Below, piece by piece: positions 2,521 through 60,636 of a DNA stretch of 64,000 nt. Location: NCBI GenBank assembly GCA_905178155.1, contig CAJINV010000002.1:11348591-11412590 (forward strand), written 5' to 3'. The notes beneath the pieces were generated by a model. That model had not been told where the DNA came from. It did no database searches and was given only the letters and a program-made list of their open reading frames with translations. The translations under genes and the position numbers were made by a program. The stretch's first letter is position 1; every line of letters begins with the position of its first letter. The stretch comes from Amoebophrya sp. A120. Its lineage: Eukaryota; Protista; Dinoflagellata.

Positions 2521-5500
2521 CTAGATGTAGCAGGGCTCCACGTACTTGTGGCAACGCTGGTTGCAAAGTGGACACCTGGGAGCGCGCAGCTGGAAGAAAC
2601 AGTCCTTGCAGAGCGAAATGTGGTTGCAGGGGAGCAGCAACACGCTTTTTTTCTGGTCCAGACACGCGCAGCAAAGCGTTTCCAGGGGCGGTCCGGACTC
2701 GGGATGGTAGTTCTGCATGCGCTATCAAATGTAAAAATGTCTGGGTCTGGAAGATTGCGAGATTTGTCATGCATATTTCGGATCACGCAAATGGCGTCTG
2801 ATGTAGGCAAAAGCATCACAGGTTTTGCGCACGCCTCATGATGCGTGTCCCGCATGAGAAACTTCCTACTTGCGTGCCAAGAAATGGACAGCTTTTGGCG
2901 CTCATGCAACACAAGTTTTTGTGTGTTTCAGAGTTTGCATCACAAGTTCCAACCCTCCCAGACCCAGACATTTTTACATTTGATATGCGCTCCACAAGGT
3001 GTTGCAGGTTCCGTACCTGGATGGCGCGCCCGGTATGGATGTGTCAGGTTTGAAATCGTCAGAGTTGAAATAGTTTGTCATGCATAAAATGGATGCCAGT
3101 TGGAGCCCAGTTTTCAAGTGGCGCATGACAAGTTTTGGCGGTGCCTAAATCCAGTTTGTAATGCTGTTTGGGTAAGAAAGACGCGTTTTGTCATGCTACT
3201 TTGGCAGCTCTATTTCTGCCCCTCAACAGGCTTGCAATCTGCCTCCCTTGCCGACTCTGCAAGACAGGCACTTTGTGGGTTGCATTTTATGCATCGCAAA
3301 TTATTTCAACTTTGACGATTTCAATCCTGACGCTTCCATACCCGGACTCCGGCGCGTACTCGATCCAGACGTAGGTGAGCAGAAAGGTAACAAGCACCAC
3401 CAACAAGGCGCGCCCCAGCGTCCATCCGCTCCAGAGTACAGCCCGCAAATTTTCGGCGCTAGGTAAAAGCACGAACGAAGGACGAGAGGCTTTAGAAGCA
3501 TTGGTCTGGAGCTGGTGCACCTGTTTCGATGAGGTCGTCCCTGCGCTCGCTCGGCTCGCTAGATGCGCTGCTGTTGCCGAGGAGGACGGAGACGGCGACC
3601 TCCATGACCACATCAATCCACCGTCAGTGAACACGTCGTCAATGTCGCCTTCCGTTTGCCCCCGCGCAAACACTTCCTCTTCTACGTATAATGCGGAGGG
3701 GAAAAACGTCGTGTGACAATACCCCCGGAGTTTGGTGTCGTGCAGGTGGCGGAAGGTGTCCTGGAGGTAAGACATGCCGCGTGAGGAGATGTAAAAAGGA
3801 AAGTACAGAACAAAGTAGAAAGTGACCAGAATGAGCACCAGGCGTGCAACCAGTTCTGCGGGGGTTGTCTTTTTGGGTAGATGTGGAAGTTCTGGCTCTA
3901 CTACTTCCACCGAAGTAGACCTGCTCGTTCCCCGATGAACTTCCGCCAGCTCGACGACCAGCTCGTCCACTGATGCAGGAGCAAGAACTTCTGCACAAAC
4001 AAGGTCTTCTACTTCCGCAGTTCTTAATACTATCTGACCTTCGTCCCTTGTCGTTGTTTGGCGACCGGTCGGAGTTGGCAATATTACCTCGTAGTTCTCT
4101 GGTGTAGTCCTGGAACAAGTCAATGCTCGCTCGCGCAAAGCTGCGCTGGCTCGCGCGCCGTTCATTTCGTCTGCTCGCGACCTGGCGGCCGTTGTATCCG
4201 TTTCGGTAGTTTCCCGCCCCTGTAACTCGTGGTGGTGGATCGCTGCAGCGCGCAGCTCGTCGTTGGCCAAATCTTTTTCGTCTACTTCCCTTACAGTTAT
4301 TTCATCTCGCTCTGCTTGTAGCCCTTCTGCCACAACAAGAACGTCGGTCGTGCCATTCGTTCTTGTCCCTCTATTCTCGACGACGTCGTCCCGATTCGCG
4401 GCTACGGGCTTGCCTAGCTCCCGAAGCCTCTGCGCAAAATTGTACACTCCGAGGGCGAGCAACGCAACCACTATCCATCGTAGCCAAAACTGCACCACGC
4501 CGCGCAGCGCGACGGATGAAGTGAACGACCTTGATGTCGCGGTCAAGGCAGCTCCTGCGCCCGTGGTGCCACCACCTCCACCAGCCAAAGGGCCGGAAAA
4601 TAAGCCCACCAGAGGGAAACTTTGGTTCTGCAGCTCGAGGCACAGCAAAACAGCAACACAGACAGCACTCCATGTTCCGCTGACGACCAGTGACGGTTCG
4701 CGCAAATACCGAACGTACACCGGATACGCTTTTGTCAGGACACGCGGCGCGCCGTCTTTCCACAGGATGACGAGACTGGGAAAAACCAAATCCCTAAAAA
4801 ACCCGCACAGGAGCAACAGGAGCATCTTTACCACGTCAGCCAGGAATTCCTTACTCCGTTCCGGCAAAAGCTGCGCGCACACACGATCCAACTGTCGCAC
4901 GAATGCGTTATCGCAGAGTAGGTTCGAGAGGAGGCAAAACAGCCTCATCAGGTCAGGCGCATGCGACGGGTCTGCTCCTTGGTCCTCCTCGCGGCGGGGC
5001 GGGGGGCCGCTACGCTTATGATTGTCTGTTTTCTCTTTGTCGTCTGCATTATTGTCGGCACCACCATCATGTTTTTGTTTTTCAACATCTCGTTTTTGCG
5101 CGGGCAAATCTCTATCTTTAAGCGCGTCTACGACGCCGGTGCGGACAAAGGTACGTGACGATGAGGAGCTCGAGGAGGACGAAGACGACCCAGTGTCCTC
5201 GACCAGGATTTGGTCCGTAATGTTGTCTAACATGCCGTTGTAATGATGCCGGTATTCTTCTTGTTCACCTCGGCGTGCGGCCGTACCTCGTCTCCCGCTG
5301 GAGCTGGACTTGATTGTGTTCTGTGCAACTGTCTGGTGCTGGTTGCTCCTTGTATCGGTACTAAGGTAAGTTGTCGGCCGGTCAACAGCTTCGCCACCTT
5401 CATCCGGTGCTGCAGGCGCCTGAAAATCCTGGTGAGGACTCTCGTCCGGTGCCATGTCTGCCATCTTCGCACTTTTCCGTTCTCTCCTCGCGGGAGCACC

Positions 5501-5632
5501 AAGCAGCCCCTGCTGGGCGGCCTGCGTGGACGAAGAGGAATCGCGGACAGAGCTTGCGATTGCGGTCTGGCGCTGGCGAACACCGGCGAAGAAAGCAAAA
5601 TCCGCTGTTGTATCTTCCTGCTCACTAGTCAT
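2521..5632 (-). CDS. Multi-pass membrane protein with C-terminal C3HC4 RING finger (putative E3 ubiquitin ligase); 3 exons, 2 introner introns
   Basis: The long ORF with several hydrophobic segments joins the RING motif once both introners are removed: ...YAPESG|RAIQVRNLQHLVER|MQNYHPESGPPLETLCCACLDQKKSVLLLPCNHISLCKDCFFQLRAPRCPLC. First ATG is at 5632. Confidence 0.85.
2723..2985. mobile_element. Introner family A (263 bp), non-canonical intron
   Basis: TIR tatcaaatgtaaaaatgtctgggtctgg / ccagacccagacatttttacatttgata. DR tgcgc at 2718-2722 and 2986-2990. Removal restores the RING gene frame. Confidence 0.95.
3034..3340. mobile_element. Introner family B (307 bp), non-canonical intron
   Basis: TIR tatggatgtgtcaggtttgaaatcgtcagagttgaaata / tatttcaactttgacgatttcaatcctgacgcttccata. 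DR cccgg at 3029-3033 and 3341-3345. In-frame stop inside. Confidence 0.95.
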
Positions 5633-7275
5633 GGCGACCCGCAATATTGATGATCTTCTAGTGTACGACCGACACCGACATGAGGATCGAACTTACTTGT
5701 CATCCAAAACCAGAATCATTTTTGCAGCACTGACTTCCACTTCTATCAATACAACACTTACGGTTACGCTTACGCCAGGGCTAGGCATTTGACTTTCAGC
5801 GAAAAATAAAAGGGTCGTAACAACTCCGATTTTTTCCAACTCGACGTCAGGAAAAAAAGATGATCTTCGAGTCGCTGCTAATATCCAACGTGAAAACCTG
5901 GCTTGTTCTTCTGGGGATCAACATTCATAGATTAATCAAGGGGACCTGTAATATGTGTTGATGAAAACGAGATTGATTCCTCACGACTCCTGCACCAGCT
6001 ATCAATTCATATTAGGCGAGTGGCCGTGGTGCGTGTTTGCAGTTGGAATAAGTCGCAACCTCTACTTAAAGGCACGACCATAAAGTTGTTCGACACCACC
6101 TTCGATAGCTCGACATCACAAAGTAACGATAACGAGAAATCCATAGATATGGATTGATAGAAGACTGACCGCTGACAAACCCTAGCTTCTCCTCGAAATC
6201 AAAAAAAACTCTCACGCATGTTGCTACATACAAATCAATGAACTATACTCGACCGCTGGTCAAAACATAAACAAAAAAACGGATCGAGAACGACACTGGA
6301 ATCTTGGAACGTGCGTCAGGTAGGGTGTACGATGAATGTCATACGAACGTCAGCAGAGGAAGCGAGAACGATAGATTTTGGAATGTTGCGAATGGGAATG
6401 CATCGCATTCCACAGTGGATATCCGCGGTTAAACGCAAAATTTTGTACGACGTGATCACTTTCAAGCTGGTCGTGGTTCTCCAGAGGGTGAAATATGTTG
6501 ACCAACGCGCAGATCTGGGAACAGAGTGGTCTAGCATCTCACAAAAGTCAGGCGGAAAAAATCCATGGCCGCAAGACCGACTGGATGCTATACGTATGTA
6601 TGATGCCGCGGAGTATAAGTGCTTCACTCGTCTTGCATGGTCATGTCACCAAAAAGCTATGTTCTTGTTCGTGAATCCTGTGCACATAATGTAGATTCTT
6701 TTGCGTGATCTGTTAGTACGCTCCTTGAGCTCCTTTTCGTGAGCGTTCTAGCGGACATGCACGCTTGTCTTAGCGGTGTGCAACCTACTTCAGTGTCGTT
6801 GTAATTGAAAACTAACTGTTTATGATTGGTTCAGAATACGAAAAAAAATGAAAATGTTGAAGCAGAAAATAAAAATCAAAAAAAATCCGTGGAAAAGTTA
6901 GTGGAAAAAACAAAAACAAAGGAGAAATAAAAAGATTGCAAAGTGTAAACTGAGGCAGAAAAGGTCGCAAAGCATTAGCTTAAGATTGCGGGGAGGGGAT
7001 AAAAAGCATGCGCAACTCGTAGTGTCATCCGACTACATGAATGCCAGTCTCTGAATTCTGCTTTCCGTTCTTATTTGCCACGTGATACCTACTACACTTC
7101 AGGCACAATGATCGTAGAAAATTTCCACGTTGAAACTGAGCAGGTACTAAAACACTGTAAGAGTGGTGCAGCATGATGGGGATTGGGGAATCTTAAATTA
7201 TAGATAATTACTGTTTTTGTCACGATTACACGACGGGGGCTGTAGCACTCTATCGTTATCTCGAGGCGCTTATCA

Positions 7276-13200: not shown

Positions 13201-15268
13201 GCGTCGCTGGGGACCACGCGGCACGCTTCGGGCGAAGCGTTTCGCGACGGGGACCTACGGAGAGACACGACACGAAGCTCATAGCTTCGCCGTCGCGTCG
13301 GCAGGGACCGTATATACGCTTCGCTTGAAGCATGCCCCAATGGTGGCCCAAGAGGTAGCACCAAGCTCCTGTGGAGAGGGTGCCTGGGTCACACAGCAGG
13401 CTTCGTGGAAGCGTGGCGCGACGGGGGGACCACAGAGCGGACACCAAACCCTTGCAGGGTTGGTGTCGACAGGGACAGGGACCGCGCAGAACGCTTCGTG
13501 AGAAGCGCGCCCCGAGGGGGACCTGCGGAGACCAACACACCACACCGAGCCGTGGTGGAGTTGATGTCGACGGGGACAACGAACACGCTTCGCAAAAGCG
13601 CGTCGCGATGGGGACTTACGGAGACGCGCGACACCAAACCTGTAGCAAGTTTGCAACACGCGTCGGCGGGGACCACGTGGCACGCTTCGCGTGCCAGAGT
13701 ATGGCCGGGAGCGTGGCAGAGTATGGCCGGCGCGTCTTCACTGGAGTGCACCTGCGTGCCAGCACCTCCAGCTTAGACCTCCAAGGCGTGCGCCTCAGCT
13801 CTCGCTGCAGCACCACCCCGGGGTGCGTCGCATACATCTGCCGCCTCGCGCGCCTTCACTGGAGTGCACCTGCTTGCCAGCACCTCCAGGGAAACGACAA
13901 CACGCGCCCGGCGCGCGCCGTTGCCCCTACAGCGGTGTCGCTCCCGTTAGCTGGCAGCGCTTAACCTCATTTCGCTATTGATCGATATGTTGGACGCGAA
14001 ATACCAAATAAATTTCAATACCTTCTCAAACGTCCGTGCCTTCTTCCGAGACTGTGCTCCCCGAGGCAGAGTTTGAGCAAGTAGTCCTCAGACAGCACCT
14101 CCGGTCTGCAGCCGTGGCAGGTGAGCAGCCGCGCAATGTACTCCGCCGAGAAGATAATGACGCACACGACCTCCATCTGGTCAAAGACCGGCAACTGCTT
14201 TGGTATACAGTCGTCGCGGCAGTACTCAAAGGTCGCCAGGGGCCACGCCTGCCGGTGCACGGTGTCTACGTTGCAGGTGGTTTCGCACGCGGTGTTGGGC
14301 CACACCTTGAACTCGGGCAGGGTGGCCACGATGAAGAGGATGGAGGAGAACATGATGGTCGCGAGCAGGAAAAAGGACAGCCACTTGGCGAGCCGGCAGC
14401 TGGAGGGGTCCTCGAACACCATGAAGACCCGCTCCATGGTGGTGAGCTGGATGAAAAAGCTGGAATTTTTCCACACGGCCACGAACTCCCACCACCCCAC
14501 CACGTATCAACGGTAAAAGTGTCTGGATCTGGAAGATTCTGACACTTGTCATGCACGTTTTGCATGGGCCATGATGTCTGTGATGCATACCCTAGCAATA
14601 CAGATTTTTTGAGGGCTTCTTGATGCGTATTCCGCATGCCAAATGCCTTCTCAGCGTAGCAAAAACTGCATTCCCTTTGCTGGTACTCATGCAATCAAGA
14701 ATTTTTTGGAATCCAGATGCAGCATCACAAGTTGCATTCTTCCAGACCCAGACATTTTTACATTTGATACCGCGCCGCTGCCGTCCACGTCGTAGTGCTC
14801 GGAGCGGAACACCGTGTCCTCGTCCCCGATCACTTTCAGCACCCGCCGCATGGCCCGCTCGAAGTGCTGGATGTGGATCTCGTCGGCGTTGGACGGGTGG
14901 ATACTAAACCGGTCGGACAGGGTCTGGAACAGCTTCCGGAACAGTCCGAGCCCCAGTTCTAACTTCGCGGGGGGAAGCATGCTCTGGTTCTCGCCGTCCA
15001 TGTTTAGAAAGTCGAACCGGGACAAATCCACCGGGGGCAACGCCCGTATCGGCGCCTCGTCGTCCGTCATCTTTTTCAGGAACGAGTCCCCCGACTGGGA
15101 CACCGAGCGGAGCTTCCCTTGCTCCATCACCGGGTCCACCTGCTTCTTGTTCGTATTGTAGTTTGTAGAATTGGACCCAGGGGTCTCCGTGCGCGGTGTT
15201 GGGTCCTCCATCCCCGGTCCGCCGCCCGGACTGATCTGGTCCTTGTTGCCGCCGAAAAAACTACTCAT
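7276..15268 (-). CDS. Voltage-gated potassium channel with N-terminal EF-hand and C-terminal C2 domains (multi-exon)
   Basis: EF-hand DVDGSGAV|GWWEF is rebuilt across an introner. S4 is LRVVRLTRLFRFMK and the pore is TTVGYGD. Canonical GT-AG introns 14021-11802 and 11203-9055 join in frame to C2-like segments (RRIQIEVYDEN...FLGEV; LTVKIIRARYL...VNPVWNEEVSF). The link to the C2 exon is inferred. Confidence 0.8.
9234..11047. mobile_element. Putative non-autonomous TIR DNA element (~1.8 kb) inside a canonical intron
   Basis: Imperfect ~70-bp TIRs (tttactgaaaaggcgacgggggggatctgtctg... / ...cagaatagcccccccgtcttgtcggtaaa). Internal repeats of cttcgtgcacgcgaaggtatgg in both orientations. Degenerate ~45-bp tandem repeats at ~10810-10960. 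No recognisable protein. Confidence 0.6.
12287..12578. other. Assembly gap (N run)
   Basis: 292 Ns; flanks 11979-12286 and 12579-12886 are identical. Confidence 0.99.
12639..13995. repeat. GC-rich intronic insert with degenerate internal repeats (probable mobile-element remnant)
   Basis: Recurrent cgcgacggggacc...cgcttcg units and a duplicated cttcactggagtgcacctg...ccagcacctcca. Flanked by a 60-bp copy of the host exon end. Confidence 0.5.
14505..14769. mobile_element. Introner family A (265 bp)
   Basis: TIR tatcaacggtaaaagtgtctggatctggaag / cttccagacccagacatttttacatttgata. DR ccacg / ccgcg (1 mismatch). Removal rebuilds the EF-hand. Confidence 0.93.
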
Positions 15269-15279
15269 GATATTCCGCT

Positions 15280-15561
15280 TATCCTGTGTAAAAACGTCCC
15301 CACCCCAGAGTTGTCATGCAGATTTGCAATTGCAGGAACATTTGTAATGCGCGTCCCCAAGGGAGGCGCTTCCAATCGTGTTTTGGCATTTGTAATGCTG
15401 CAAAAAGGATAGGCAGATGGATTTGTGATGCGGCTGTCCAGCATGCTAATATGCACTACATTACGGACTGCAACTTGTCATGCGTGGCTCCCAAAACTTA
15501 TGGATTTGTGTTGCTACGTTCCCAACTTGACTATGGGGTGGGGACGTTTTTGCATATGATA
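15280..15561. mobile_element. Introner family C (282 bp), in the probable 5' UTR of the K channel gene
   Basis: TIR tatcctgtgtaaaaacgtccccacccca / tggggtggggacgtttttgcatatgata. DR ccgct at 15275-15279 and 15562-15566. Confidence 0.9.
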
Positions 15562-17188: not shown

Positions 17189-20100
17189 TCACCGTGAGAG
17201 GTCGAGTTCCAGAGCGGCGTGTATTTTGTCTAGTACGTCGGTCATGCGGTTGAGCTTCCCCTCGACTGTATCCATTCGCCCGTTGAGTGCGTCCATCTGC
17301 CCGTGCAGAACACGAGCTGCGTCTCCGCCGCCCACTGAGACTGTAGAAACGGCTCCTCCGTCGCGGCTTTGCGCCCTGCTGAGGCTAGGCGTTTCGGCGC
17401 TGTCCTCTACATCTCCTGGAGCTGGACCTAGTGTCAGTTTGTTTTCAGCGAGCGTACATACTCCTATATGGCCGGACAAAAGTCCTTAATTCCGGATTTT
17501 GCTAGCGATAAAAATAGATAATTTTTTCTATAAATTGAGTGGGTGCGAATTCGGCAGAGCACAGACTCGATGCGCTCAAAGGCCGCAGGTCTTTGTGTTT
17601 TGGTCTCGAGATCATTTCCATCTGGCAGCATTTTTTTTATGATTGCACGAATGCGAACAGTGGGCGTTGCAGTTCTTGCACTTGGGGCGCCCACGCCTCC
17701 GCAAGAAAGCAAACAAACTCGCATGGGCCGCCTTGTATCCAGCGTCTACGAACTAGCTGGCCCATGAGGCATCTTGACCAGTGAGCACGCCGTTCCTGGC
17801 GGGTGCGCCAATAGATGTAGGACCGGCCCCCAGCAGGCCTGCTGCTCCGACACTATTGGGTTGCCAAACATAGGGCAAACCCGCCACGGCCAGGGCGATA
17901 GAACCAAGCTCGCCAATTAATTTGCAGAAAAAAGGGCGACGGCCCAAGCGCGGCGGCGTTCAATTTAATTGATTTCCTAAGGCCGGGCGGCAATAGAATA
18001 GAGGCGCGAGGCCAATAGACTAAGAGGCGCGAGGCCACTAGACTAGAGGGCGTGGGCTTCTGTGATAGTGCTCGCGGGCGCTGGGAAATCAATTAAATTG
18101 AGGGTCGCCACTTTGCAACCCGCCGCCGGCGAGCAGGCAAACCATGCGAAAACAGCGAAGCCAGCGACAGCTCTGGCGCTGCGATCGCCACGATATTAAA
18201 GCAAAACGGCCCCCCGCCTTCGCGCGGCGGCGCCCTGGCGAGCGCCCACCCAATTGGCGCAGTTGCCCGGGGCGGCGTCTCACGCAGATTCTCTTCGGGC
18301 GCAGCAACAGGAAGGCCCCCGCCGTTTTACCCTGCGGCGCGCAATGGGGATCGTTGGCAATCAAGCTAAAGCCCTCCGAAGGCAGCGCGCTTGCCTATTG
18401 TGTGGCGCTTGTTGTTCTACACCTCCTGGAGCTGGACCTAGTGTCAGTTGTTTTTTCCAAAGGTAAGTCCATTAGTAGAAGATGCACCGTATCCAGCGAG
18501 CGTACATACTCGTACTCCTACTCCAGGTCACAAATATTTATAACGATTAAGGCGAGCTGCTTCACTTAGTAGAAGCAACATCAGAATACGAGTAGGGGCG
18601 ATCGTCTTCTAGTAGGTTCAGTGTATGCATGCTCCAGCAGTGGTTTTCTTTTTTTCCATTCGTGCAAAACACGTGATGTCACCTTTCCGTTCTAATACAC
18701 CATCCATTGCTGGTCGAAGCAAGAATAGATCAGCTAGTATTGCTTCGACCAGCAAAAATAAGTACTAAAACGCAGAGTGCTCCGTACTAGCTTCTCCTAG
18801 AGCTAGACCCAGAGTGGTCACAGTCATAATTTCATCTGGCACCAGTTGGAAGTTCATCTTCATCATCATCTTCATCTGCTATACGACGGGGGAACAAGTA
18901 TTAATTAATAGGTACCTGACGCTGCCGCGGGCGGGAGAAGGGATTTCGATCTTGTCCTGCTTCCGCCGGACAAACCTCCGGAGGCTAGCTGCATCCGGTG
19001 TGACGTGAGCATTTTTTGCACGTCGTTTTTCGTTTGCTTCGCTATCTTCAACACCTTGGTGAGCTCAATCGGCGCCTCGGACGTGACGCGCTCCCGCATC
19101 AGGTCGCAGAACTCGTCAATCCCGACGGAGTTGTCCCCGTCCACGTCCAGCGTGTCGAATAACTGCACCGGGGATTCGTTGCCCAGGAAATGCTGCAACT
19201 CCACCTCTATCTCCGGGTTCGTCTCTAATCCCTCGAGTATGGCGTTCTCAAATGTTACATTCTCAACTGTTACATGAATTTGTCATGCAAGAACAGCAAA
19301 AGCGAACGCGGGAAGATTGCGCGCTTTGCATTACAAATTTGGAGCAGATCCAGGTGGTGTTTAGCCCTTCGAGAATTTGTCATGCGAAACACCTTGATCG
19401 TGTGGCGGCTTATGGTCATTTTGCATGACAAATCATGTAACAGTTGAGAATGTAACATTTGAGAACGCCATATCGAGCAGCTCCTCCTTGGAAATCTCGC
19501 CGGACCCGTCCCTGTCGAGCAGAACGAAGATTGCTTTGATTTGCGGCATATGCATTGCAAAAGCATCGTATTCGTACTAGTACAAATTGCATTACAAATT
19601 TTATCAGAAAGAAAAATGGAATTTGTAATGCTAATTGAGGTAAAAAGGTAGGTTTGTCATGCAAGATTTTTTTTTTTTCATTGGGCCCCGCTATTTTTCG
19701 CATATATCAAATTCATCACTAAGTTAGGAGGCCGGTGGCCGTTGCCTAACATGTGATGCAGTTCTACGAATTCACCTGCCTGCCGCAGCAGGTATCAGGG
19801 CCGACACCTTTCACACAGTTGAGCAGAGCGCGTTTATACCATCTTTTTTGTTTTTGTTTTTCTCTTACTTTCGACGCCCGGTCTTGCAGGACTCTCGTCC
19901 TGTGGTCTCTTGGGCTGTATACTGCTTGTCATGCAAGATTGCAATTAGTACGAGTACGATACTTTTGCACAGGATACGGCATCATCTGCTCCAGCTTTTT
20001 TTTCGCGTACACCGCGTTCACCTCCTTGTCATTCTTCGACGATTCCAGCGCGTTCTCGACGAGCACGGCGGTGACCAGGTTCATCATCGCGATACTGACC

Positions 20101-41200: not shown

Positions 41201-44200
41201 GTCTCTATTGCAGAGGACGCAAGGGAGGCAGATTGTAGTGCTGGCAAGGGTCCAGAATTGGGTTGCTGATTAGCATGACAGAGGGGAGTCCTTTTGCCCG
41301 AAACAGCATGACAGACTTGCTCTAGAAGCCAGGAAAATTTGTCATGCGCCAATTAAAAACTAGGCGCCAACTGGTATCCGTTTTACGCATCACAAATTAC
41401 TTCAACTCTGACGATTTCGATCCTGACACTCCCATAGAAGGCGGGGGACGCGCGGTAGACGAGGCACTCGCGCTCGTGCCGGTGATCGCCGAGTTCATAT
41501 GGAAGCAGGTGCCTTTCGGGACCGTATCTTTTGGGTTTGCTGTGGTCTCAGCCCCGGATGTTGTAGATGATCCAGACGACGAAGCTGCTGCATCAACTGT
41601 GACCCCTGCCGTCTTATTTGCTCGTTCCATCAACGTGGAAGCCGGAGGACCACGTACTTGCTGTGAAGATATTTTTTTTTTTCGTGCGAACAGCAAGAGA
41701 ACAGGAGTAGTCAGGATCTTGTACCTCATCCTGTGAGAGAACCAAAAATAGAACATTCAAAAGCTAGCAAAGCTACTCAGTCACTGAAAATTATGCGTCG
41801 CACGCTCATACATCGAGTTGTTTGAATCCGAAAGCATCAACGTAGATGTCGATCACCAACTTCTGCTGGTGCGCGTGAGTACTTAGTACTTGCAAAATCA
41901 TTTCCAAAAATTTCTATATGTAAAATCAAAAAAAGCAGCAGTCTAACAAGTAGATCACTGTACGACTTCTGCGTCTGCCGGCGTTCTGGTAGCACGTTCG
42001 ACAGGCGCAGTCGCTCCTGGCTCCCCTTGAGAAGGTAGTAAAAGCGCCTCTGGCGGTTTTTTCACGTAGGAGATGCCTAAATTATGGCACACTCAAACGT
42101 TACATTGATCGCTGTTCCAGGACTTTGGCCGGATTTGTTGTGCGAAGCACAAGCACCTGTGGCTACCTATGCATGACCCAGGGCCAGGAGGTCGTGGCTC
42201 GCATGACAAATTCATCCTGAAGCGCAATCTGGCACTCAAATCCGTGCCAAATTTGTGATGCAGATGCAAGCACAAGCAGCGAAAGCTTCTTGTTGTCTCT
42301 TCTGCTTTTCGTTTCTTTTGCCTTTCGTTTACGTTTTGCTGTTCTTGCATAACAAAGCACCACGGAATCACCATCAAGGAAGAGCGATCGATGGAACATT
42401 AAAATTTGAGAGCGCCATAAAAGTTTTCCCGATCGTGGGACAGCTTCTCGGACGGTTTTTCCTGAATCCCGTACCCGAAAAAAAAATCCAGTAGCTCGAT
42501 GGGGCTCCCTATCCTGAGTAACGACGTCCCCTTTTCAAGCTTGTCATGTAAATTTGGGCATGCTCATGATGTTTCTCATGCGGCTCTTGTTCTAGTCGTC
42601 CTCTCGTGTATTTAGTTTGGAAGCGATGAAACAAATTCTACTTCATTATTGTTATTCTCTATATGAGGATCCGGATCTGTGCTGCGGCTACACTAGCTGC
42701 AGCGAGGCACGAAATCTGAAGATCCTTCCAGGTTCGTCAAGCCTCAGAACAAACATCTTCCGAGTTGTTCCTTGTGTTGGCAATTTCTCAACATCACCGT
42801 CTAGGAACTTGTTTTTGCTCAGGATACGCCCAGTCGTCTCATCGAGCACAACCTTGCTGGCGTCCAGGTTTCCGTGCCCATTCCCGGTCGAGTGCAAGCG
42901 GTGCAGCAGCAAAAGCACGTCCCACATCATGACCTTAATCGTACGCGGCGTCAGCCCGTGCTTCCGGGCGTTGTTCACATCTTCTGGGCCAGGCTCGGCC
43001 GCTTGTTGTTCAACATCATCTTCCAAGTGTACGTTGCGCTGAAAGTCGTAGCCTCGGGCTGCGGCCTGCCGCTGCTTGTCGTGGCATCGGAGGTCCCGCC
43101 CCACAGTATTTTTCGCTTGTTGGGACGATGAGGACGAGGAGGACAAAGATGATGTCTCAGCTCCCCCACCAGCCGCGCCTCCGGCAGATCCGGGAGCCAG
43201 GAGAGCACCGGAACCGCCCTGGTGTCGTGGCAGGTCGTGTGCAGTCGCCGGGGCCGCCGCTGGGTTGCTGGACACTACCCAATCTCTCGCCTTGTTTCGC
43301 GCGGCAGCCTGCTCGGCTGCCAACCGCGGATCGGGATCTGCAATGTTAACGCCGGTGTTATTCGCAGTTTGGGCAAGAGCAGTTGGTGCAGTTGTAGCTT
43401 CCCCGCACTTATTTGGCGGCGGCATTTTTGAAGAAGACGATGAACTTGAGGCTGCGGCAAGAGGAACTTCCCCCGAAGATGATGTCGTTGAGCTGGTGCA
43501 AGAAGTAGTGTTAGAAGATACCAGCAACCCGCCTTCCGAGGTGCCTTGGTCTCCGGGTGGAATGCTCGTGTTTGGAGCTGCTGTCGACACCGTGCTGGAG
43601 TTCGATAGCGTGTTGAGCTTCAGAAAGAGTGATGAAGACGATGAGGAGGACGACCGAGCGGAAGCCGCACCACCAGCGTCGGCTGCTGGTCCACTAGCGT
43701 CGACTCCAGCGTTGTGGTTGGCTTTGCCTCGAGCCGCCGCTCGGGAAGCGGCGCTGCCCCGCTTCAGCAGCCCGCCTCCCCCGCCGGCAGTTGTGGTAGT
43801 GGCAGGGAAACTATCAGAGGAGCTCGAGGAGGAAGAGGACGAGGATGAGCCCGCCATAGAAGGTAGTAGCAGTGGTGGGTGCTGAGGGTGATCGACATGG
43901 CTTGCACTAGAAGCAGGCGCCGCAATTCTTGACGGTAGAAGATCCACCCTATCAAACATTTTCATTTCCATTTTCAGTAGATGATGAAGATGAACCCCTG
44001 CACTTGTTGGTCTTGAGAAAAAAGAAAGACGAAACAAACCCTCGTCCACTTCTCCGAAATAAAACTACGGTGGAGCTCCAGCTCAACATTCATTTCTCCC
44101 CTGTGCCTACGCATGTGTACAATCGGAATTGACAAAAAAGCAAACAGACAATAATACTGCATATCTGTGTCCATTGCCTCAAGAGTGTCGTCTTGCTCGT

Positions 44201-46564
44201 CTCCTCTATGGTGTTCACCTGGTGCGAAATCCCACACAACCACATTCTCCTGCGGCAGAAGATTCCTTTCGGTCTGCAGTTCTTGCTCCCGCGCCGCCAG
44301 GTCAATGTGATGCACTCTAAGACGCTCGGGCACAACCTCCAGCGCGCCTGCTGCACCAGCACCCAATTGCACGTGGTCCTCGTCCATGACCATGTTTTGC
44401 TGCTCGACGTCGGGCACTGCATGATTGTTGGGCAGGTGCGTTTGTACTCGCTGCAGGACATGATTTTCCGATTGCCCTTCCTCGCCATCACCATCATCGT
44501 CCCGGTCCCGGACAAGGACTTCAATTTCCTCGACGACAGCAGCTGGAGCAGCACCCCCGCCAACCTCTGTAGCTTCCACAATACAACTCTGGTGTGCCGG
44601 TACCGTCTCCTTATGCAAACGCTGCAGCTGCGCAGCCCGGAGCTCCTTCGTGGCTTGCTCCTTCAGCAGAGTGGACAGCAAAAAGGGAACACGCCGGAAG
44701 ATGAAGACCACGTTTCGGCGGTCAGCGACTAGTGCTACCTTCATCACATGGTTGTCGTGCAGAAATGGGTGGCACAGGTACCGAACCTATTGTAGTTATG
44801 ATGTTGACAAGAACTTAGCTTAGTGACGACATGCAGAAAAATCGACCCTGCATGAAGAGCTACTCTAAGAAAAAAAGCCTAGAGATGAAGCTGCTCATGC
44901 AACAACAAGGACGGGACACAGAACCAGCATCTTCGCCCCAAGCGAATTGCATCTAGTATCTATAGCTAAATGTTGCTAACACGTTGCCAAGTATAAGCAA
45001 TTTGTTCACACCGTGGCGTGCGCCATGCCGTCGGCGTCGGGCAACGGAGCTTCCACAAGTAAAGTCTGCCGCTCGCTGCATTTGCTGGTGTAAAACCAGC
45101 TGCGCACAATATGCGAAAACACGCACTCGGCAGATTTCGGAAGGTGCTCATCGTGCTGTTGGACGAAGTTCCTGGAGAGTGTTATTTTTCTCTTCATCCT
45201 GGTCATAATGGGAAGATAGAAACGCGACGCTCGCGCGCGCCGTGGTAGAGACCAAAGAAAAAATGTCTGTGTATCAGTATCGTCCATCACGTTTAATCGC
45301 ATGCATCACGATGTTGATGATGATGTATTATTGTGCTGATGTACTAGTGAAGTCACATGCAAATTCGAATGCGTCTTTCCACAGGAAAAAACAAAAAGTT
45401 ATTGTACTGGAAGAAGTTTTGCGTGATGATCTTTTCCAGCTCCCCTTTGGCCGTGTTCTGGTCCTTTCGCGGAATGACGCGATTGTAAGTAATGCGCACG
45501 CAATCCACCCAGAGGTGAGGGGCGTAGGCGAGTTCCAGGAAACGCTTGCACTATCCTGCACAAAAGTATCGCGCTCGTACTCATTGCAACCATACATGGC
45601 AAAGACAACCACATGTACTGCTACTACATCTTTCTTAGGCAAATCACCACTACATGTTGAGTTTTGCTCTTCAGAAAGTTTAAGTTTGTACAAGTATATG
45701 TTGTATATGCAATCTTCACTCGGCCGTTACTTTTGCAATGCATATGCACACCGGCGGCACGATTCCGCCCAGCTCATCCGGGCGTAGGAAGGCGAAGATC
45801 AGCAGCCAATTGTCATCAGACAAGTCTGGATAGTAGAGCTCCGTCATAGTGCTTTCGTCGCGTTGGTCTTCTTGTTCAACAACAGGAGTGTCAATCGCGC
45901 CTTCCAAACTCAACAACTCGTCGGTGTTGCAGCCGGCTATAGCTCGTCCCGTGTCTTCCTGGTTTTCCTGCGAGTAATTTTCTCGTGACGCGCAGCTGCG
46001 CCCCGTGCCCGTGCGCCTTGTTGTTGTATGATTCGGGTTTATTATCTGCAGGTCCTGCAGTTCGTCTCCTGCGGCAACGCCAATGTCGTCCAGTCTATCT
46101 TCTGCCGCGTTTGGATTTTTTTGCCAGGATAGCTGCTGCACTCCGCCGTGACAGTACAAAGCAGAGGGAGACAAAGGAGACTCCGCCACTGCAAGAACCC
46201 CGCGCTCGCGGCCCGCCTCGCTCCGAGTACAACTGTTGACAAAAATGCTACGTTGACGCGTTTCCCTTTCCTGTTCTTCCGGAACCACACAGTTCCTAGC
46301 GGAAGATCCAGGTGGATCTGGGGGGCGGCCGTAACTTTCAGGATAGCTGGGAAGGGTAGAAGCAGAAGTGCCTACTGGCCGCTGCAGGTCATGCTCCTGC
46401 TGCTGCTGAAGCAGCCGCGCCGGAGTGGGAACGTTTCGAAAAGACCTGCTTCCACCTGAGGGTGAGGGTCTCCAGCTCGTCCTAGATGCTCGCTTATCTT
46501 CTTCTGGATGACGACTGTGGTTCGTCTGGTTGCTCGGCAGAATGTCGCCTCTTACGCTTGCCAT
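35236..46564 (-). CDS. F-box + CDK-like pseudokinase + cyclin (A/B-type) fusion protein, multi-exon with 5 introners
   Basis: F-box-like YPDLSDDNWLLIFAFLRPDELGGIVPPVC. Kinase motifs HGNLDASKVVL, KPPEALL, DLWQCGLLL, LLTMDPKKRMQIQEALAHEYF. Cyclin box MRSVLVDWLIEVH...LQLVGLACLLIASKVEE lies in the same ORF as the kinase C-lobe (39501..40787). Cyclin C-terminal AVHKKYS. The F-box link is inferred. Confidence 0.75.
36779..37741. mobile_element. Introner family A (963 bp), reversed orientation, with nested insertion
   Basis: Family A TIRs; DR acatc at 36774-36778 and 37742-37746. Removal gives ...RQPTEM|CAVHKKYS. Confidence 0.92.
37012..37681 (+). mobile_element. Nested polyA-tailed retroposon (SINE-like or 5'-truncated non-LTR), 670 bp
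   Basis: Flanked by 19-bp direct repeats aaaatgtgcatgacaaacc (36993-37011) and aaaatgcgcatgacaaacc (37682-37700). Ends in aat plus an A-run. Removal returns the host to 274 bp. Confidence 0.75.
38998..39266. mobile_element. Introner family A (269 bp)
   Basis: Family A TIRs; DR ccagt. Removal gives cyclin MEFDVL|ATLLKYGYVLRAPTAVSFL. Confidence 0.95.
40798..41059. mobile_element. Introner family A (262 bp)
   Basis: Family A TIRs; DR gggtc. Removal gives DLWQCGLLLGT|LCMNKIG. Confidence 0.95.
41130..41436. mobile_element. Introner family B (307 bp)
   Basis: TIR tatggaagcgtcaggtttgaaatcgacaaagttgaa / ttcaactctgacgatttcgatcctgacactcccata. DR degenerate (ggcgg / gaagg). Confidence 0.9.
42083..42419. 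mobile_element. Degenerate introner related to family D (337 bp)
   Basis: Ends tatggcacactcaaa...gatcgct / agcgatc...tttgagagcgccata. DR eroded (taaat / aaagt). Removing element plus 5 bp gives HDRENF|GISYVKKPPEALL (kinase subdomain VIII-like). Confidence 0.75.
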
Positions 46565-53399: not shown

Positions 53400-55121
53400 T
53401 ACGTATTCGTAATATACTGCATATAGTATAATTTTTTGATGTGCTGCCTGCTGAGGGTCATGCTCAGATCCGACTTCCTTGTTGATAAGCTGAAGATGCT
53501 CAGATGATCTCGATCATCTGCTTCCGTTTTTACAACACGGACGGTGAATTTAAGTCATTGTCGTTCGTTCGAGCTGCACAACTACAGGAGCGGCATATCC
53601 TTGTAGTTGTCGCCGGCTAATGTTGCTGCTGCCCCTCCTTTTTGATTTTACTCTGATCCAACGATAATAGGACCTTGCTCATCTTCCATGCAGCTTCATG
53701 TCACAGCCGCGCCGTCTCCTCGCCATGATGCTCACCTTGCTTTCGACAAACCCGCCCGGCTTTAGCTTTTCAACATGTCGCCCTCAAATTCATAAAACAA
53801 CTTTTTTCTTTATGTTTTCGCTATCGTTTCGAAACTGTGGTAGAAAAAAAAGAAATAGAATAGGAATACCAGTCGGTATTCTCATTAATAATGTGCGTGT
53901 GCAAAACAGGAGAAAAACTTGTATAGCAAACTGCAATGTAAATGATGTAAAACAAAAGAAAAAATCATCTCGATTTTTTTTGTCGCCCCATTCTGTCCAT
54001 GTTGAACATGGACACCGATACAACTCATGGTCATGCCCTCGACGAAGACCATCATTAACAGTCCTCACCCGTCAGAACGAATCTGAATGATTGATGAAAG
54101 CTGTCCAACTAGAGATGAAATAGAATTCAACAAGATAAATTGTCGTGGAAATGAATGATGAAATGGAAATCCTTATGGACAAAAAATGACACGTGTCCAC
54201 CTCCACACTTCTATCGCCTCCGTAGTTCTTCTTGCACAACGTATCGACTAACGACCTGATGCAGACAACGCGCCATGATAGATGAACTGTGAAAAGAAAG
54301 ATACTACAGGAGGAAGTGGCAAATCTCGGCGCAGCTTCGTTTTTATTTGCGCAGATGTTGTGGCTCTGTGTCTGAGCTGCCCGAAGAGATTCCACTCTCC
54401 CCTCCTTGCTTTGAGCTACTACTTCTGGGAATCGTAAGGTACTAGCGTGCAATTTCCGGCAAAAATTGCTCCCAAATTGCGTAGTCGTACTTACACTTTC
54501 TCCGTTGTATCTCCGTTGTAAAAGTGAATGAGACAGCGACGCAAATTGATGCTTCACAGACACCTCAAGTGGAGCATCGACGTGAGGCGGGGGTAGATTG
54601 ATCACCCCCTCCGCCGTGACGAGATGTGGGTACAACAAGACTCACGCGGCGCTGTCCGTCGTCTCCCCGTGGTCCACTTCCTCCTCCTCGTCCTTCTCCA
54701 CGCGCGGCCCCGCAGCAGGCCGCGGCTTTCCCAGCTGCAGGAGCGGCAGCGGCTTCTTCGCCGGGAAAGGGTCGGCGAAGATCGTCCCAGAGGGCGAGAA
54801 GGAGCGCTGTTCTTCGGGAGCACCTGCTCCCGCCGCCCCATCTTCATCATGATGCCCACTTGCACTTCCGCCGTCGCCAAGAAGACCTTCAGCTGGATCA
54901 TCGCGCCGCGAAGATGAGAGCAGCAAGGGACTCTTCTTAGTGGCCGCGCTCCTCTGCTCCGACAACGATAAAAAAGCGGAACGTCTTGTAGTTCTTCCAG
55001 TCGCGCTGCTTCTTCCTGAGGAGCGCCTCGTCCCCGCCGAAAGCCCGCTGGCAACGGTGAACCCCGAACCAGCAGCCGAACTCGGCGTTACACTCGCGCC
55101 ATTTCTATCAAATGCAAACAT
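53400..55121 (-). CDS. Hypothetical protein (first exon 54600-55121 plausible; downstream exons unresolved)
   Basis: GC-rich ATG-initiated ORF 54642..55121 followed by intron-like AT-rich sequence. Confidence 0.35.
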
Positions 55122-55358
55122 CGTGCTCCTTGGTCTTCAGAAAGAATGCAGAAAGTGCGTCCTCGTTGCTGCAGCTGCGACCTCTTAAAAAGTGTCGTCG
55201 CACCTCGCGCGACCGGATGACGAGAAGAACAGTGGTGCTGCTGCAATCTTTCTTGAGAATACATATACAACAACTGTCGTTCTATAAAACAAATGGAGGC
55301 AACAGTGCAGTGAAATCATTTGTTTGTACGACAAGAACTCCTACAGACCAGGGAAGCA

Positions 55359-58300
55359 TCACGAAGATGCATAAGGAGCAGAAGAATACTCTGAATAATC
55401 ATCAGAGTCATCATAATAATCCTCAGCAGGATCATCTAAGGCGGCGGATGAAGCGCGGCTTCCCGTTCTGGAACTGCGTCTTGAAACGCGGCTTCCAGCG
55501 CGGCTTCCAGGTGACCTGGAAGCCGGAAGTCGTGTTCCAACTGGCGGTTGTGCCGGACGCGGCAGCAGCCCAGGAGATCGCGTTCCGCTGCTCCCCACCC
55601 TGCTCCTGGCCCCGCCCGCACTGCTCATGGCCCTGCCCGCTACACTGCTCCTTGCAACTCCTGCCCGCCCCCTCGGCTGTTGCGTGCTCCCGGGCAGAAC
55701 GGCTGCCGTTTGCTGGGGCCCGCCACCCCCCACAAGCTTTCGCCGGTGTTCCGTAATTTGCGACAGTACCTTCTGCCGCCCGCATTCCCGCTTGTAGTTC
55801 AAGAAGCTGAGCGCCTCTGTGTGGCTGAGCACCGCGTTTTCGTACGGTGGAGCCTCCACCGCCAGTGGCTCGCGTTTTTGAATTGGGTTCTCTGGCACAG
55901 ACAAGAGGTGAACGTCCGCGTTTTGGTACTGGTGAAGAAGGTAACGCGTGATCACCCCGGCCAACACCAAGTCTCCCACGTACGCCTGCGTTTGCTCCTT
56001 CAGTTCGTCCATTTTTTGGTCTTGTTGCACTTGGTTCAGAGCACGATCCTGGATGATGATGTCCCGAAGCCATTTTAGGTTCGAAAACTGATACGGACGG
56101 TTTGGATCATCGTCGTGCGGGTCCTGCCTCAGGTACAGAGCATCCAGGTTCCAAATGGTGACGCTCCCGTCGAATCGCTTCGCTTTTTGTTCGGTCTTCT
56201 TTTGTGTTGCCGACGTTTTGTTCTTCCCGGCAGATGTGAGCTCGTCGAGAAATCGCTTATATTGCGTCTCCACATCCTTTCGCACCACATCAGCCAACAT
56301 TTCCTGGGCCTCCGAGTATTGTCCGCTCCGCAGAAACTGCACGAAGTCGCTCCACGCCGCACCATCGCCCTGCCAATGCTCGACGCTGGAGATTTCCACG
56401 CGGAAAACCAGGCAAGAGTTGGCGGAGCCCTTCGAGCCCGTGATTTCCTGGCACTTTTTCTCCTGCGTTTTGGTGTTGAGTGGCAGTTGCATCTGCCTTA
56501 TGGAAGCGTCAGGTTTGAAATCGTCAAAGTTGAAATAATTTGTAATGCATAAAATGCATGACCGGAGGCACGTGTGTTGCAGAGCAGGCAAGTGAGGCCG
56601 ATTGTAAGCCTGTTTGGGGCTACAGCTCGAGCTGCTAAAGTAACATGAGAAAATCGCTCTTCTTTGCCTAAACAGCATGACAGAGTGGATTTAGGGACCA
56701 CCGAAATTTGTCTTGCGCTACTTGGAAACTGGGTTCCAATTGGCATCCATTTTATGCATGACAAATTATTTCAACTTTATCGATTTCAACTCTGACACAT
56801 CCATATGCCTCGGGTCTTCCGTCTCGGTGTCTTTTTTGCGGATCCGCCCGACGGGGACGAGCAGTCCGTCGCCCAGGTCCGTAATGTAGGTCGCGGGATA
56901 TTCTCCATCGACTTGATCGAAGAACACACGCTCCATGGTGGTCTTTGCCGCGTTGCAGGCGTCGTCCAACACCAGCATCTGGGCCTGCGTCATCCGCACG
57001 TGCAGCTGGTCCTTCGTACCAAGCCCGTTCCGGATCGGCGTCGTCGTGTGGGACTTCAAATATTCATCCAACACCTCGTCCCGCTTCTTCGAGAACTTGT
57101 AATACTCTATTCTCGCTTGGTTGCCGTGGAGCACGTACAGCGGCGAATTTGGGTCGTCGTCGGTGGAAAACCGGGCGTATTCTCTGCAAAAGTCCATCGT
57201 ATCAAGGTTTCCAATTGCAACTGCAGTACCTAGATGTAGATCTAGATGTAGAGACGACAAATAACTCATTTGCCGAAGAAGACATATACACTGTTGCTAC
57301 TGCTACTCAGGAGCAGAGCTAGTAGTAAAGGAAAACAAGGCTCAAGCAAATGATCAATTGCTAACATGCAGTTTGTTTTGGCAACCTGAAGACGATAGCT
57401 TTCAACTGCATAAAGCTTCCCAATCTGCGGCGTCGTGCGCAACTCCTGACGCCGCCCAGGAAGAAGCATAGAGACGAAGGAGAGCGGCTTTGCGCGACGC
57501 CTGCTGGTAGGTGAGCAATATGGCGCTCTCAAATGTTACATTCTCAACTGTTACATGATTTGTCATGCAAAAACACTGTCACTCTTAATACGATCAAGCC
57601 TTCTCCGCATGACAACTTCTCGACGTGCTAGATAGCATTATAATCTGCTCCAAACCTGTAATGCAAAAGGCGCAACGTTTTTCCTTTCACTTTTGTCGTT
57701 CTTGCATTACAAATTTCATGTAACAGTTGAGAATGTAACGTTTGAGAACGCCATAAGCAACGCTTTCAGTTTATCGAAAGAAAAAAACCTTACCTCCAAT
57801 ATGCGTATTCAGCGAAGGCGCGTGAAAATGGAGGAGGTCAGGGCCTTAGCTTGTAGAAAGCAGAGGAAGAAGGGCAGAGAAAAAGAAGCCAAGTTGTCGT
57901 CGGACGCCTACTTCTGCCTTTTATACGTGATCAAAAGAAAAACTAGAGGACCGTGACTCTTCCTAAAGCCATGAAAAGAAGTAAAACTTTGAGAACCAAC
58001 CGCGGCGATGACACATGCGCATTTTCCTTGTTCTCACAGCAGATCTACTCTACGTGCATACTTCTATTTCTGAATTGGAGCTGGAGGGAGGCAAACAAGA
58101 AGCGCAGATTGATGAAGGCAGAAATCAATCGACCAAGTCCAAAGGACCTCTACTGTGGCTTATGCGGGGCGTTCCATCAAGAGCCGGCCCGACATCAATC
58201 AACCTGCAGCAGGGCTAGGGCTTCAGCTGGGCTGGCTCTCATCCCTTGCAAGAAAGCACGGACCTACGAATGTGTCCATGCGCCACAGCGATCTTTCGCC

Positions 58301-60636
58301 CGAAACCGGGGAAAAGTAAGAGCAGAGATTGAGATGGATGTTGATGAAAAAACGAGAAACAAAAAGATGAAAAATGGTTGGTCCCAATGATCTCACCACT
58401 TCTAGCACATCAACTAGCGGCATTTTTTCGCTAGGAGGCAAGTAGGCAGCGGGTTTTTTTCTAATCATATCATTGGATGTCCCGCATCTGCTCAAACACC
58501 CCGCCGAGCGAGTCGGCCTTGATTTCGTAAGCCGACTTTGGCTTTGCCTTGGGTGCAGCTGGGGCGTCAATTCTTGTCTGATCAAGGGCCTTGGACAAGC
58601 TGGCACGCATCCATTGTTCGGGGCGCTTGTACGTGCTGATGTCTCCGGCTTGGTAGCAGGGCTGCAGACTTGCCTTCACGTGGGACCTCGCCACTGACTC
58701 CGTCATGCCGTACCGCTGCTCGATGTACCCAGTGAGCACGTCACCAAGGGCAGCAAGGGACACGTCGTTGCTGGCAGAGTTTGGGTATGGGTTCACATCC
58801 ACGTCGATCAGCAAAATTCTCTTTGGAAAATCAAGCATGTCCTTGTTCTCACCCGTGGTTTTCTCGAGCATTTTTTTCGCGATGCCGAGCGGACTGCTGT
58901 CGCCGTTTTGAACCTTTTGTTTTCGCGTCACGTCCAGGAGACCTCGGCGTTCCGGCGCCGCCTTCGTCGGAGCCGGCCTGGCTTGGAGGACCCACCCGCG
59001 TCTGCCTGGGCCGCGAGGACAAGTTATCCAAAAGCTCTGCGGGTTTTGTTCCCAGTTCCCGCCATCGCACACAAAGGTCTGCGCAGTTTCCTGGTCCAAC
59101 ATGTAAAGGTCCAACATGTAAGTATTTTGGGATTGGGGATGTTTTGTTCGATCAAGCCAGACAATCTGTCCCGTTTTTTCCATCTTTGTCCAGTCAGAGT
59201 TCAACTTGTCTCCCACCTTTCTCGTGTCTTGAACCATCCGACTCAAATCCTCGCTGAGGGAGGTATGGCGTTCTCAACTGTTACATTCTCAACTGTTACA
59301 TGAATTTGTCATGCAGAACTACCATCAAGATCTACACGAGAAAGCTGCTTCGCGTGACAAATTTGCGAAAGGCTAAGCAAAGCCTAAATCTGTGCAGAAC
59401 TTGTATGTAATGCTAGAGGTGCAAGAACCTCGCCCCTTTCACTTTTGCAATTCTTGCATCACAGACTCATGTAACAGTTGAGAATGTAACAGTTGAGAAC
59501 GCCATAGGAGGTGTCGAAGATCACGTTCACGACGGGCGCCGAGTCTTCGCCGAGGGGGGGCTTCGCCGCAAAACAGCCCGACCGAGAGAGCTTGTCTGCG
59601 AACAAATCGCGGTCAGCCTGGGAAGCGTTCTCGTCAGGCACACTAAGCTTCAACTTCTGGTACCCAACACCCCACCGATCAATCTCCCCGCGGACGTTCA
59701 TCCCGGAGTCGCGAACCGACGAGTCCACAAAGTTCACGCAGATTTCGGGCACAATCGAAACGGCAGCAAATGAAGGCCCGCCTTCGACCCCTCCCGGCAC
59801 TGGATTGCTGCACTGCTGGTTGGTACTCAGCGCCACTGCTGCCATCTGGGAGCGGACCCCGCCGAAGGCTGCCTCCTCCTGCTTGCGAACCTGCTCCTGC
59901 TTTTTCTGCGCGGCCTCGTGTGCCAGCAAAGCTTTCCGTGCAAAGTAGCTGGATCCGATGAAACCTCCCAAATTGGGGGTTCCGTAAATTCCCCAATTCG
60001 CACCCACCAGGGCCGCACCAACGACCGGAAGCGTCCATAAGACCGCACCTGCAGGTGAGATCTGCTGCAGCTGCTTCTCCTGCACCTGCTGCTTCTCCTG
60101 CACCTGCTGCTTCTCCTGTACCTGCTGCTTCTCCTGTACCTGCTGCTTCTCCTGCACCTGCTGCTTCTCCTGCACCTGCTGCTTTTCCTGCACCTGCTGC
60201 TTCTCCTGCACCTGCTGCTTTTCCTCGAGCCTTTCCCGCAGAAGCTCTGTAAAACAAAAAGAATGGATCTTGCCACACTTGAACTTCTTGACCATCAAAC
60301 CTATAAAAATCATGGGAAAATGAGAAACCAAAGAGAAATGACGTGAAGATCAACATGATCATGATGTAGATGTTCGCGTCGTGGGAACAACAACAACATC
60401 AACAAACTACACGAATATAATAGCTGCGTGGTACTCGTTCGCTTCTTCTGAAATTCCAGCTTCACTCCCGATCCGGTGTAGAAAACCGCAGCAAGCCAGT
60501 ACATCACCAGGCGTGGCAAGTGAAGGCCCGGTCGGGCCCCTGCACGGACAACTACTACGGGCGACGAAGATGCTGCAGCGCTTGACGAGGCCGCCGCAGT
60601 CGCGGAGAACCCTGCTCGGGCACAACCTTGCACCAT
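55359..60636 (-). CDS. Large multi-exon hypothetical protein with 3 introners and a QEKQQV repeat (could be more than one gene)
   Basis: ORFs 59459..60331 and 58470..59246 join in frame after introner removal (FDTS|LSEDLSRMVQD), as do 56766..57269 and 55359..56678 (EDPR|QMQLPLNTK). No family recognised. Confidence 0.65.
56499..56805. mobile_element. Introner family B (307 bp)
   Basis: Family B TIRs; DR tgcct at 56494-56498 and 56806-56810. Confidence 0.95.
57519..57755. mobile_element. Introner family D (237 bp)
   Basis: Family D TIRs; DR agcaa. Host exon frame is plausible (KLKAL|LTYQQASRKA) but not independently anchored. Confidence 0.92.
59264..59506. mobile_element. Introner family D (243 bp)
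   Basis: Family D TIRs; DR ggagg at 59259-59263 and 59507-59511. Confidence 0.95.
60071..60224. repeat. Coding 18-bp tandem repeat (QEKQQV)n
   Basis: About 9 copies of ctgctgcttctcctgcac. Confidence 0.9.

Follow-up and report, generated by a model that had tools for sequence, protein, structure and literature searches.

Six informative introner elements of Amoebophrya sp. A120 share fixed, unequal cut distances from their ends: a probable case of hairpin-guided removal

The closest described relatives of the elements treated here are the introners of Amoebophrya sp. A120. According to the text of Farhat et al. 2021 (PMC7789003), these carry inverted repeats initiated by TAT and direct repeats of 3–5 nt, number 29,850 copies in 1954 families, and have RNA-seq support in A120; their splice sites vary relative to the hairpin, lying 1–5 nt from the inverted repeats, no U1 small nuclear RNA (snRNA) was found, and the removal mechanism was left open. 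A120 introners with terminal inverted repeats (TIRs) and Copia/Gypsy-like frames appear in part of a further paper (PMC12130899). We analyzed 64,000 nt of this genome (contig CAJINV010000002.1, positions 11,348,591 to 11,412,590, forward strand; hereafter the window), in which a first-pass annotation had noticed transposon-like TAT...ATA elements and had recognized them as Amoebophrya introners. They are indeed the published class, and the phenomenon is already known, since Farhat et al. describe it. The new part is a sharper border rule, which makes the open removal mechanism testable: in six informative copies, read in transcript sense, the intron takes in 1 nt ahead of TAT and 4 nt beyond ATA (the 1/4 register).

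All 14 starts listed previously proved to be TAT...ATA elements, with 16–20 TIR matches within the first 20 nt, and the five or more families proposed became about six (within-family identity 68–82%). A strict scan for TIRs plus a direct repeat (DR) gave 14 hits in the window versus 0–1 per shuffle in 20 shuffles. The list was not complete, as six elements had been missed: three (42510, 45552, 62962) came from a scan for TAT...ATA pairs with inverted ends, and three older copies (55106, 57178, 57772) were recognized from RNA joints. All 20 begin with TAT and end with ATA. Two general statements held only in part. Inverted ends are present in 14/14, but the 28–40 bp or more claimed for all shrinks to an ungapped TIR of only 18 nt at 36779 (963 bp), and the 5-bp DR is perfect in 11 of the 14, but agrees at 4/5 positions at 14505 and at 3/5 at 41130 and 42083. 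The elements show the traits of miniature inverted-repeat transposable elements (MITEs), namely TIRs, a target duplication of fixed length and the lack of coding capacity; like the published introners, they have inverted repeats beginning with TAT at both intron ends and direct repeats over the exon/intron border, and they form repeated families. No Pfam match was found in 20 frames from long elements and introns; five long copies had none in the frames tested. No transposase or removal enzyme was found, and Rfam had no match in the window. The elements, listed without strand, and one example of an internal motif are as follows.

2723..2985: introner, family A, perfect 5-bp DR, in a RING-domain gene (minus strand)
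3034..3340: introner, family B, perfect DR, same RING-domain gene as 2723
14505..14769: introner, family A, DR 4/5, within the EF-hand-like loop of a channel/C2 protein
15280..15561: introner, family D, perfect DR, outside the annotated coding sequence, whose start codon (15268) lies downstream of it
19238..19472: introner, family C, perfect DR, in the EF-hand region of an ion channel
19549..19976: introner, family E, perfect DR, same ion-channel gene as 19238
36779..37741: long derivative of family A (963 bp), perfect DR, without any internal Pfam match, in an F-box/kinase-like/cyclin gene
38998..39266: introner, family A, perfect DR, in the cyclin region
40798..41059: introner, family A, perfect DR, in the kinase-like region
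41130..41436: introner, family B, DR 3/5, within a linker that matches no homologue
42083..42419: introner, family C-like, DR 3/5
42510..42826: introner, DR 4/5, additional to the earlier list
45552..45744: introner, family E, perfect DR, additional to the earlier list
55106..55397: old introner, DR 2/5, without the subterminal motif, RNA joint 55100–55398
56499..56805: introner, family B, perfect DR, RNA joint skipping 312 = 307 + 5
57178..57412: old introner, DR 2/5, without the subterminal motif, RNA joint 57173–57414
57519..57755: introner, family C, perfect DR, removed in RNA, adjoining a 12-nt exon
57772..58469: old 698-bp introner, DR 2/5, without the subterminal motif, RNA joint
59264..59506: introner, family C, perfect DR, RNA joint skipping 248 = 243 + 5
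62962..63319: introner, family F, perfect DR, additional to the earlier list
2765..2772, plus strand: example of the shared subterminal motif TGT[CAG]ATGC, a likely transposase-binding site

Four sequencing runs were compared on the interval 40400–60300 only. Run X3, whose kind is guessed as RNA, joins five GT-AG introns of a Paf1 gene, and X6 does likewise, so both are spliced; ordinary GT-AG introns do coexist with the elements, as first noted. The X3 contigs skip 312 nt at 56499 and 248 nt at 59264, in each case the element plus 5 nt, and remove 57519, which gives direct RNA joints for 3/14 of the listed elements. They also remove the three old elements. Thus, among the joints listed, six elements are taken out at non-GT-AG borders, and the six removals together rebuild an open frame of 1204 codons. 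Neither of the two outcomes named beforehand as fatal to precise removal, transcripts that retain the elements or junctions at cryptic GT-AG sites, was seen: where joints were seen, the X3 transcripts are free of the elements and are joined at the element ends. The joint 59258–59507 was considered as a cryptic canonical site and rejected, its GT..AG label being on the plus strand and the gene on the minus strand. For the elements at 40798–45552 no joint was found among those listed, cover being too low at 40798, 41130 and 42083. The raw RNA run X13 had 2 reads on the interval; 36779 and 38998 lie just outside it, and the six elements at 2723–19976 are also beyond it. A 12-nt exon (57756–57767) stands between two introners, both accurately removed in X3.

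Protein comparisons extend these observations. One exon of the channel/C2 gene matches an annotated A120 protein with 100% identity, and an annotated A120 protein runs across 14505. The RING motif is rebuilt across 2723/3034 once the elements are removed, a single alignment then spans 19238/19549, and alignments with the A25 orthologue run across 36779, 38998, 40798, 42083 and 42510. The proposal that the elements interrupt conserved domains needs narrowing: 15280 lies just upstream of a start codon and 41130 in a linker without homologue match. All assignable genes are on the minus strand.

Where exactly is the cut? A perfect DR permits six cut places, and diverged copies are therefore the informative ones. 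The RNA joint at 57178 is compatible only with a junction that keeps 4 nt from the DR copy upstream and 1 nt from the one downstream (4/1). The joint at 57772 also fits only 4/1, and 5/0 would there create a stop codon, while the joint at 55106 fits 5/0, 4/1 or 3/2. At 14505 the alanine of the A120 and A25 proteins requires at least 3 upstream nucleotides; at 42510 the arginine of the A25 orthologue and of P0095 requires at least 4; at 42083 the leucine of the same two excludes keeping all 5 (at most 4). A seventh imperfect copy, 41130, had no homologue match and was left out of the set. The only register common to the 6/6 informative copies is 4/1, and the mirror junction (1 nt upstream, 4 nt downstream) is excluded by 5/5 copies able to tell. 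The earlier rule, deletion of the element with one DR copy, therefore gave the right length and restored the proteins, but the junction is a hybrid of both copies. The register holds where the DR copies agree at only 2/5 positions, and since such diverged copies share only one cut, removal appears to be measured from the element ends and not guided by the DR. Complementary end motifs at unequal fixed spacers, here 1 and 4 nt, are a trait of Euglena nonconventional introns. Under this register 0/20 window elements are GT-AG in sense. Table S4 of PMC7789003 fits the 4/1 register as far as its commonest entries go: the second intron base is T in each of the nine most frequent A120 splice dinucleotide pairs. 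The penultimate base, however, is A in 8/9 of them, so the strand is not settled by this table.

A search with one 28-nt element end found at least 132 loci, of which 80 were listed, all contigs of one assembly record of a related genome; the listed loci share no flanks with the window. Among 323 TIR pairs, a number that includes nested false pairs, 240 elements had a perfect DR and 45 had 4/5, and the exact 5-bp DR was present in 192/234 elements with strong TIRs. A codon model, which found the right strand in 79/85 test pieces, favored removal of the element plus 5 nt at 152/182 scorable junctions (236 examined) and oriented 147 coding insertions. Of these, 36 start with G, 13 end with AG and 2 are GT-AG, so the GT/GC donor and AG acceptor of U2-type introns are not selected. 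Another U2-type trait, function in one orientation only, is absent as well: family A stood 18 times one way relative to the gene and 20 times the other, and family B 3 versus 2. Both element ends have the same base profile. A is found at end positions 11–13 in 87–98% of the 147 elements, which agrees with the end motif of the published introners (TAT, about 7 nt and AAA); family B lacks the AAA and in family C it is shifted. No target position departed from the codon-expected composition at p < 0.02, and the exon-start base followed codon composition without purine preference. Insertion phases 0/1/2 were 63/39/22 in 124 coding insertions (p 3e-5), whereas a symmetric target model predicts 42/26/32%; the skew was greater on one locus strand (39/17/8) than on the other (24/22/14). 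One nested element (L026:3329-3608) has a duplication of 8 bp instead of 5. If removal always takes the element and 5 nt more, the frame would survive a duplication of 2, 5 or 8 bp.

The families share an internal motif, TGTCATGC. The window contains 54 hits to its form TGT[CAG]ATGC, and 51 of these fall within 17 elements that cover 5573 bp; in the related assembly it is present in 269/276 young elements. Going inward, the first copy begins at 33–34 or 41–43 in 250/552 ends, and the commonest spacing is 31–33 bp, about three DNA turns. The motif is absent from the three old spliced elements (0/3) and from the five GT-AG introns. Because old copies without it are still spliced, TGTCATGC likely serves transposition, and it is probably the binding site of one transposase acting on many families and not a splicing signal. 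As a branch point it was rejected: several copies stand in each element, in both directions and usually 31–33 bp apart, and the three spliced old copies have none. A 5-bp duplication fits integrase-like DDE enzymes.

The reading we favor, with a probability of roughly 55%, is that non-autonomous TAT...ATA transposons are removed from pre-mRNA by hairpin-guided cutting and joining at the fixed 1/4 distances, probably without the spliceosome. We infer removal at the RNA level from three observations, namely the polarity of the junction in transcript sense, the DNA data and a contig with the look of a partly spliced molecule. In the DNA-like run X1 the depth is zero at every RNA joint listed, and one of its contigs, 15 kb long, retains three elements in place; this evidence consists of contigs only, and the life stage is not on record. 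The partly spliced-looking contig has low depth (6 versus 568), retains 57772 and stops exactly where 57519 would begin, as expected of a partly spliced molecule; 18 of its letters are unplaced. That the enzyme is non-spliceosomal follows less firmly.

In the mechanism that we propose, a single trans-acting, probably integrase-like DDE transposase would bind the TGTCATGC sites of all young families and insert them in either orientation, with almost no target preference and with a 5-bp duplication. The symmetric ends would then pair, and therefore N-UAU would stand at the 5' end, with AUA-NNNN at the 3' end, in either orientation. The fold of young copies is a stem whose overhangs measure 1 nt and 4 nt, while old copies keep partial pairing only, and for this reason the TAT/ATA triplets are probably read too. 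Taking out the element with 5 nt would exactly restore the original coding sequence, so that insertions would be nearly harmless and could spread through exons. With age the DR copies, most of the inverted repeat and the motif would decay, and the terminal TAT/ATA and the register would persist. A stronger form, to which we give somewhat less than even odds, is a second, spliceosome-independent splicing machine that reads nothing but the paired TAT...ATA end and makes its cuts 1 nt and 4 nt beyond that end, a spacing that exactly undoes the duplication made by one transposase serving many families through TGTCATGC, with a code that evolved independently of the analogous one of Euglena. If true, this would be a dedicated transposon-repair splicing code.

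Several results weigh against hairpin-guided removal at a fixed register. The register comes from six copies, every one of them in a gene on the minus strand of a single window, and RNA alone pins two of them; the RNA evidence is that of one run's contigs, which drop rare forms, from a run of guessed kind. In the three old copies the terminal pairs are weak, with a pairing probability of 0.01–0.41 for the first three pairs, and the hairpin alone therefore does not explain the register. Mismatches between DR copies are synonymous in 14/23 cases versus 37–41% expected for a strictly fixed register (p 0.02–0.05), a hint that both DR copies may reach mRNA. By the codon model, 23 single-mismatch copies of the related assembly show no register pattern, and among 25 imperfect copies 4/1 and its mirror were not told apart (p = 0.37), no register giving a stop. 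Finally, under this register the intron has U+2 and A+3, like the GT-AG donors of this genome, and this also suits a relaxed spliceosome.

Such a spliceosome is a serious rival because of this U+2/A+3 register and the Fritillaria precedent, although we consider it the less probable explanation and rather doubtful. A modified U2-type spliceosome would use the same 1/4 register, taking N-UAU as a relaxed donor, finding the 3' site by its distance from the stem and releasing a lariat. The five GT-AG introns seen in RNA start with GTA, which N-UAU resembles at these two positions, and the phases of 63/39/22 under the 1/4 register are like the ratio usual for spliceosomal introns. Against this, there is no selection for G+1 or a terminal AG, whereas the second spliceosomal step normally requires the terminal Gs of the intron; the elements work in either orientation; and in the modeled fold the stem would bury the donor from +2 onward. 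In favor of the spliceosome, Farhat et al. (PMC7789003) report 83/89 spliceosomal proteins, but no U1 snRNA. According to PMC13326754, the spliceosome of Fritillaria can process non-GT/AG introns thanks to changes in U2AF and in snRNA methylation, but the Fritillaria introns keep preferred terminal dinucleotides (PMC11282704) and the A120 elements have none.

The first-pass annotation had proposed a second, structure-guided pathway acting on either RNA or DNA. Its precise non-GT-AG removal stands, but its DNA branch is now disfavored. In this version a domesticated transposase would excise the elements with a staggered cut, as programmed DNA elimination in the transcribing (intracellular) nuclei, like internal eliminated sequences (IESs). 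Symmetric ends, orientation independence and spaced subterminal motifs are indeed features of DNA transposases, the synonymous excess among DR mismatches would fit heteroduplex junctions, and run X1 may not come from the stage concerned. However, the joined forms have zero depth in that one run, and the search for element-free DNA therefore found none in it; a symmetric cut should yield both 4/1 and its mirror, which 5/5 informative copies exclude; old copies that have lost the motif are still removed exactly; and our literature search found no paper linking Amoebophrya with programmed DNA elimination. IES-like DNA excision is thus unlikely, and we would give it only a small chance. It is very improbable that the joints are reverse-transcriptase template-switching artefacts in broken genes, for which strong hairpins with 5-bp repeats are a known setting (PMC8240250, in part), because the joints are exact even at 2/5 repeat identity, the joined form dominates (568 versus 6) and removal restores proteins conserved in the A25 orthologue and other homologues.

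A fixed 1/4 register makes the removal mechanism open to direct tests. The register predicts the exact ends of the excised RNA, whether as a circle junction or as a lariat 5' end, would settle where the borders of tens of thousands of introns in A120 lie, and explains the silence of insertions that duplicate 5 bp. The separation of the transposition signal (TGTCATGC) from the removal signal (terminal TAT/ATA) offers a bait for the transposase. If the machinery is non-spliceosomal, an intron of this kind, working in either orientation with no exon sequence needed, would represent a second splicing code found in nature and could serve as a tool. Literature searches, which left most subscription papers outside, found none stating the 1/4 register, orientation independence or a shared motif for Amoebophrya, and the passages of PMC11282704, PMC12005148, PMC9860276 and PMC12787238 that we consulted contain nothing on register, orientation or motif.

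Some other features of the window were noted. Candidate old TAT...ATA elements with weak inverted ends lie at 940–1225, 16691–17510, 18194–18697, 33656–34370 and 34489–35193. A different 1.8-kb element (9234–11047) lies within the GT-AG intron 8994–11201; its inverted ends (TTTAC...GTAAA) are imperfect, it is flanked by A runs and contains repeats, and it has no Pfam match. The last 19 codons of an upstream exon have two 89% copies (11986–12042 and 12586–12642) inside a 2.2-kb GT-AG intron; these flank an N gap (12287–12578) and are either a duplication or an assembly artefact. The gene at 35239–46612 (minus strand) has an F-box-like N-terminus together with a kinase segment of CDK-like type and cyclin N/C domains. 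The kinase segment was read from the sequence and had no Pfam kinase hit; the domain order is matched in the 2032-aa A25 orthologue P0001, and the gene may be a kinase-cyclin fusion. GC-rich tandem repeat arrays occupy 24000–28000 (73% GC at 24–26 kb), and a low-complexity repeat stands at the window start (1–700).

How do these elements compare with known systems? Ciliate IESs (Paramecium, the Euplotes Tec elements) are transposon-like coding inserts with symmetric ends that are precisely removed and lost from somatic DNA. The elements of the window share with them the insertion into coding sequence, transposon-like character, precise removal and symmetric ends, but the DNA run keeps the A120 elements and the junction is polar in transcript sense. 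With the introns of Fritillaria borealis (PMC13326754; PMC11282704; both in the parts consulted) they have in common a MITE origin and a genome-wide escape from GT-AG; unlike them, they show no preferred terminal dinucleotides, which the spliceosomal introns of Fritillaria keep.

The agreement with the published A120 introners is the closest, including TAT inverted repeats, short DRs, many families, non-GT-AG borders, RNA support and no internal transposase. Two points differ from the text of PMC7789003, on which this comparison is based (Fig. 3 and S19–S25 may show more on register): the splice sites variable there are fixed at 1/4 in six copies here, and the text has no shared internal motif, whereas here one motif links the families. 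The nonconventional introns of Euglena, as described in part of PMC12501133, also have complementary end motifs at unequal fixed distances (N3/N5-6 there, N1/N4 here), a MITE-like origin, coexistence with GT-AG introns and open machinery. In contrast to them, the A120 elements use TAT/ATA instead of CDG/CH'G, show no purine preference at the exon start, and in young copies have long inverted repeats and 5-bp duplications, and they belong to an unrelated lineage.

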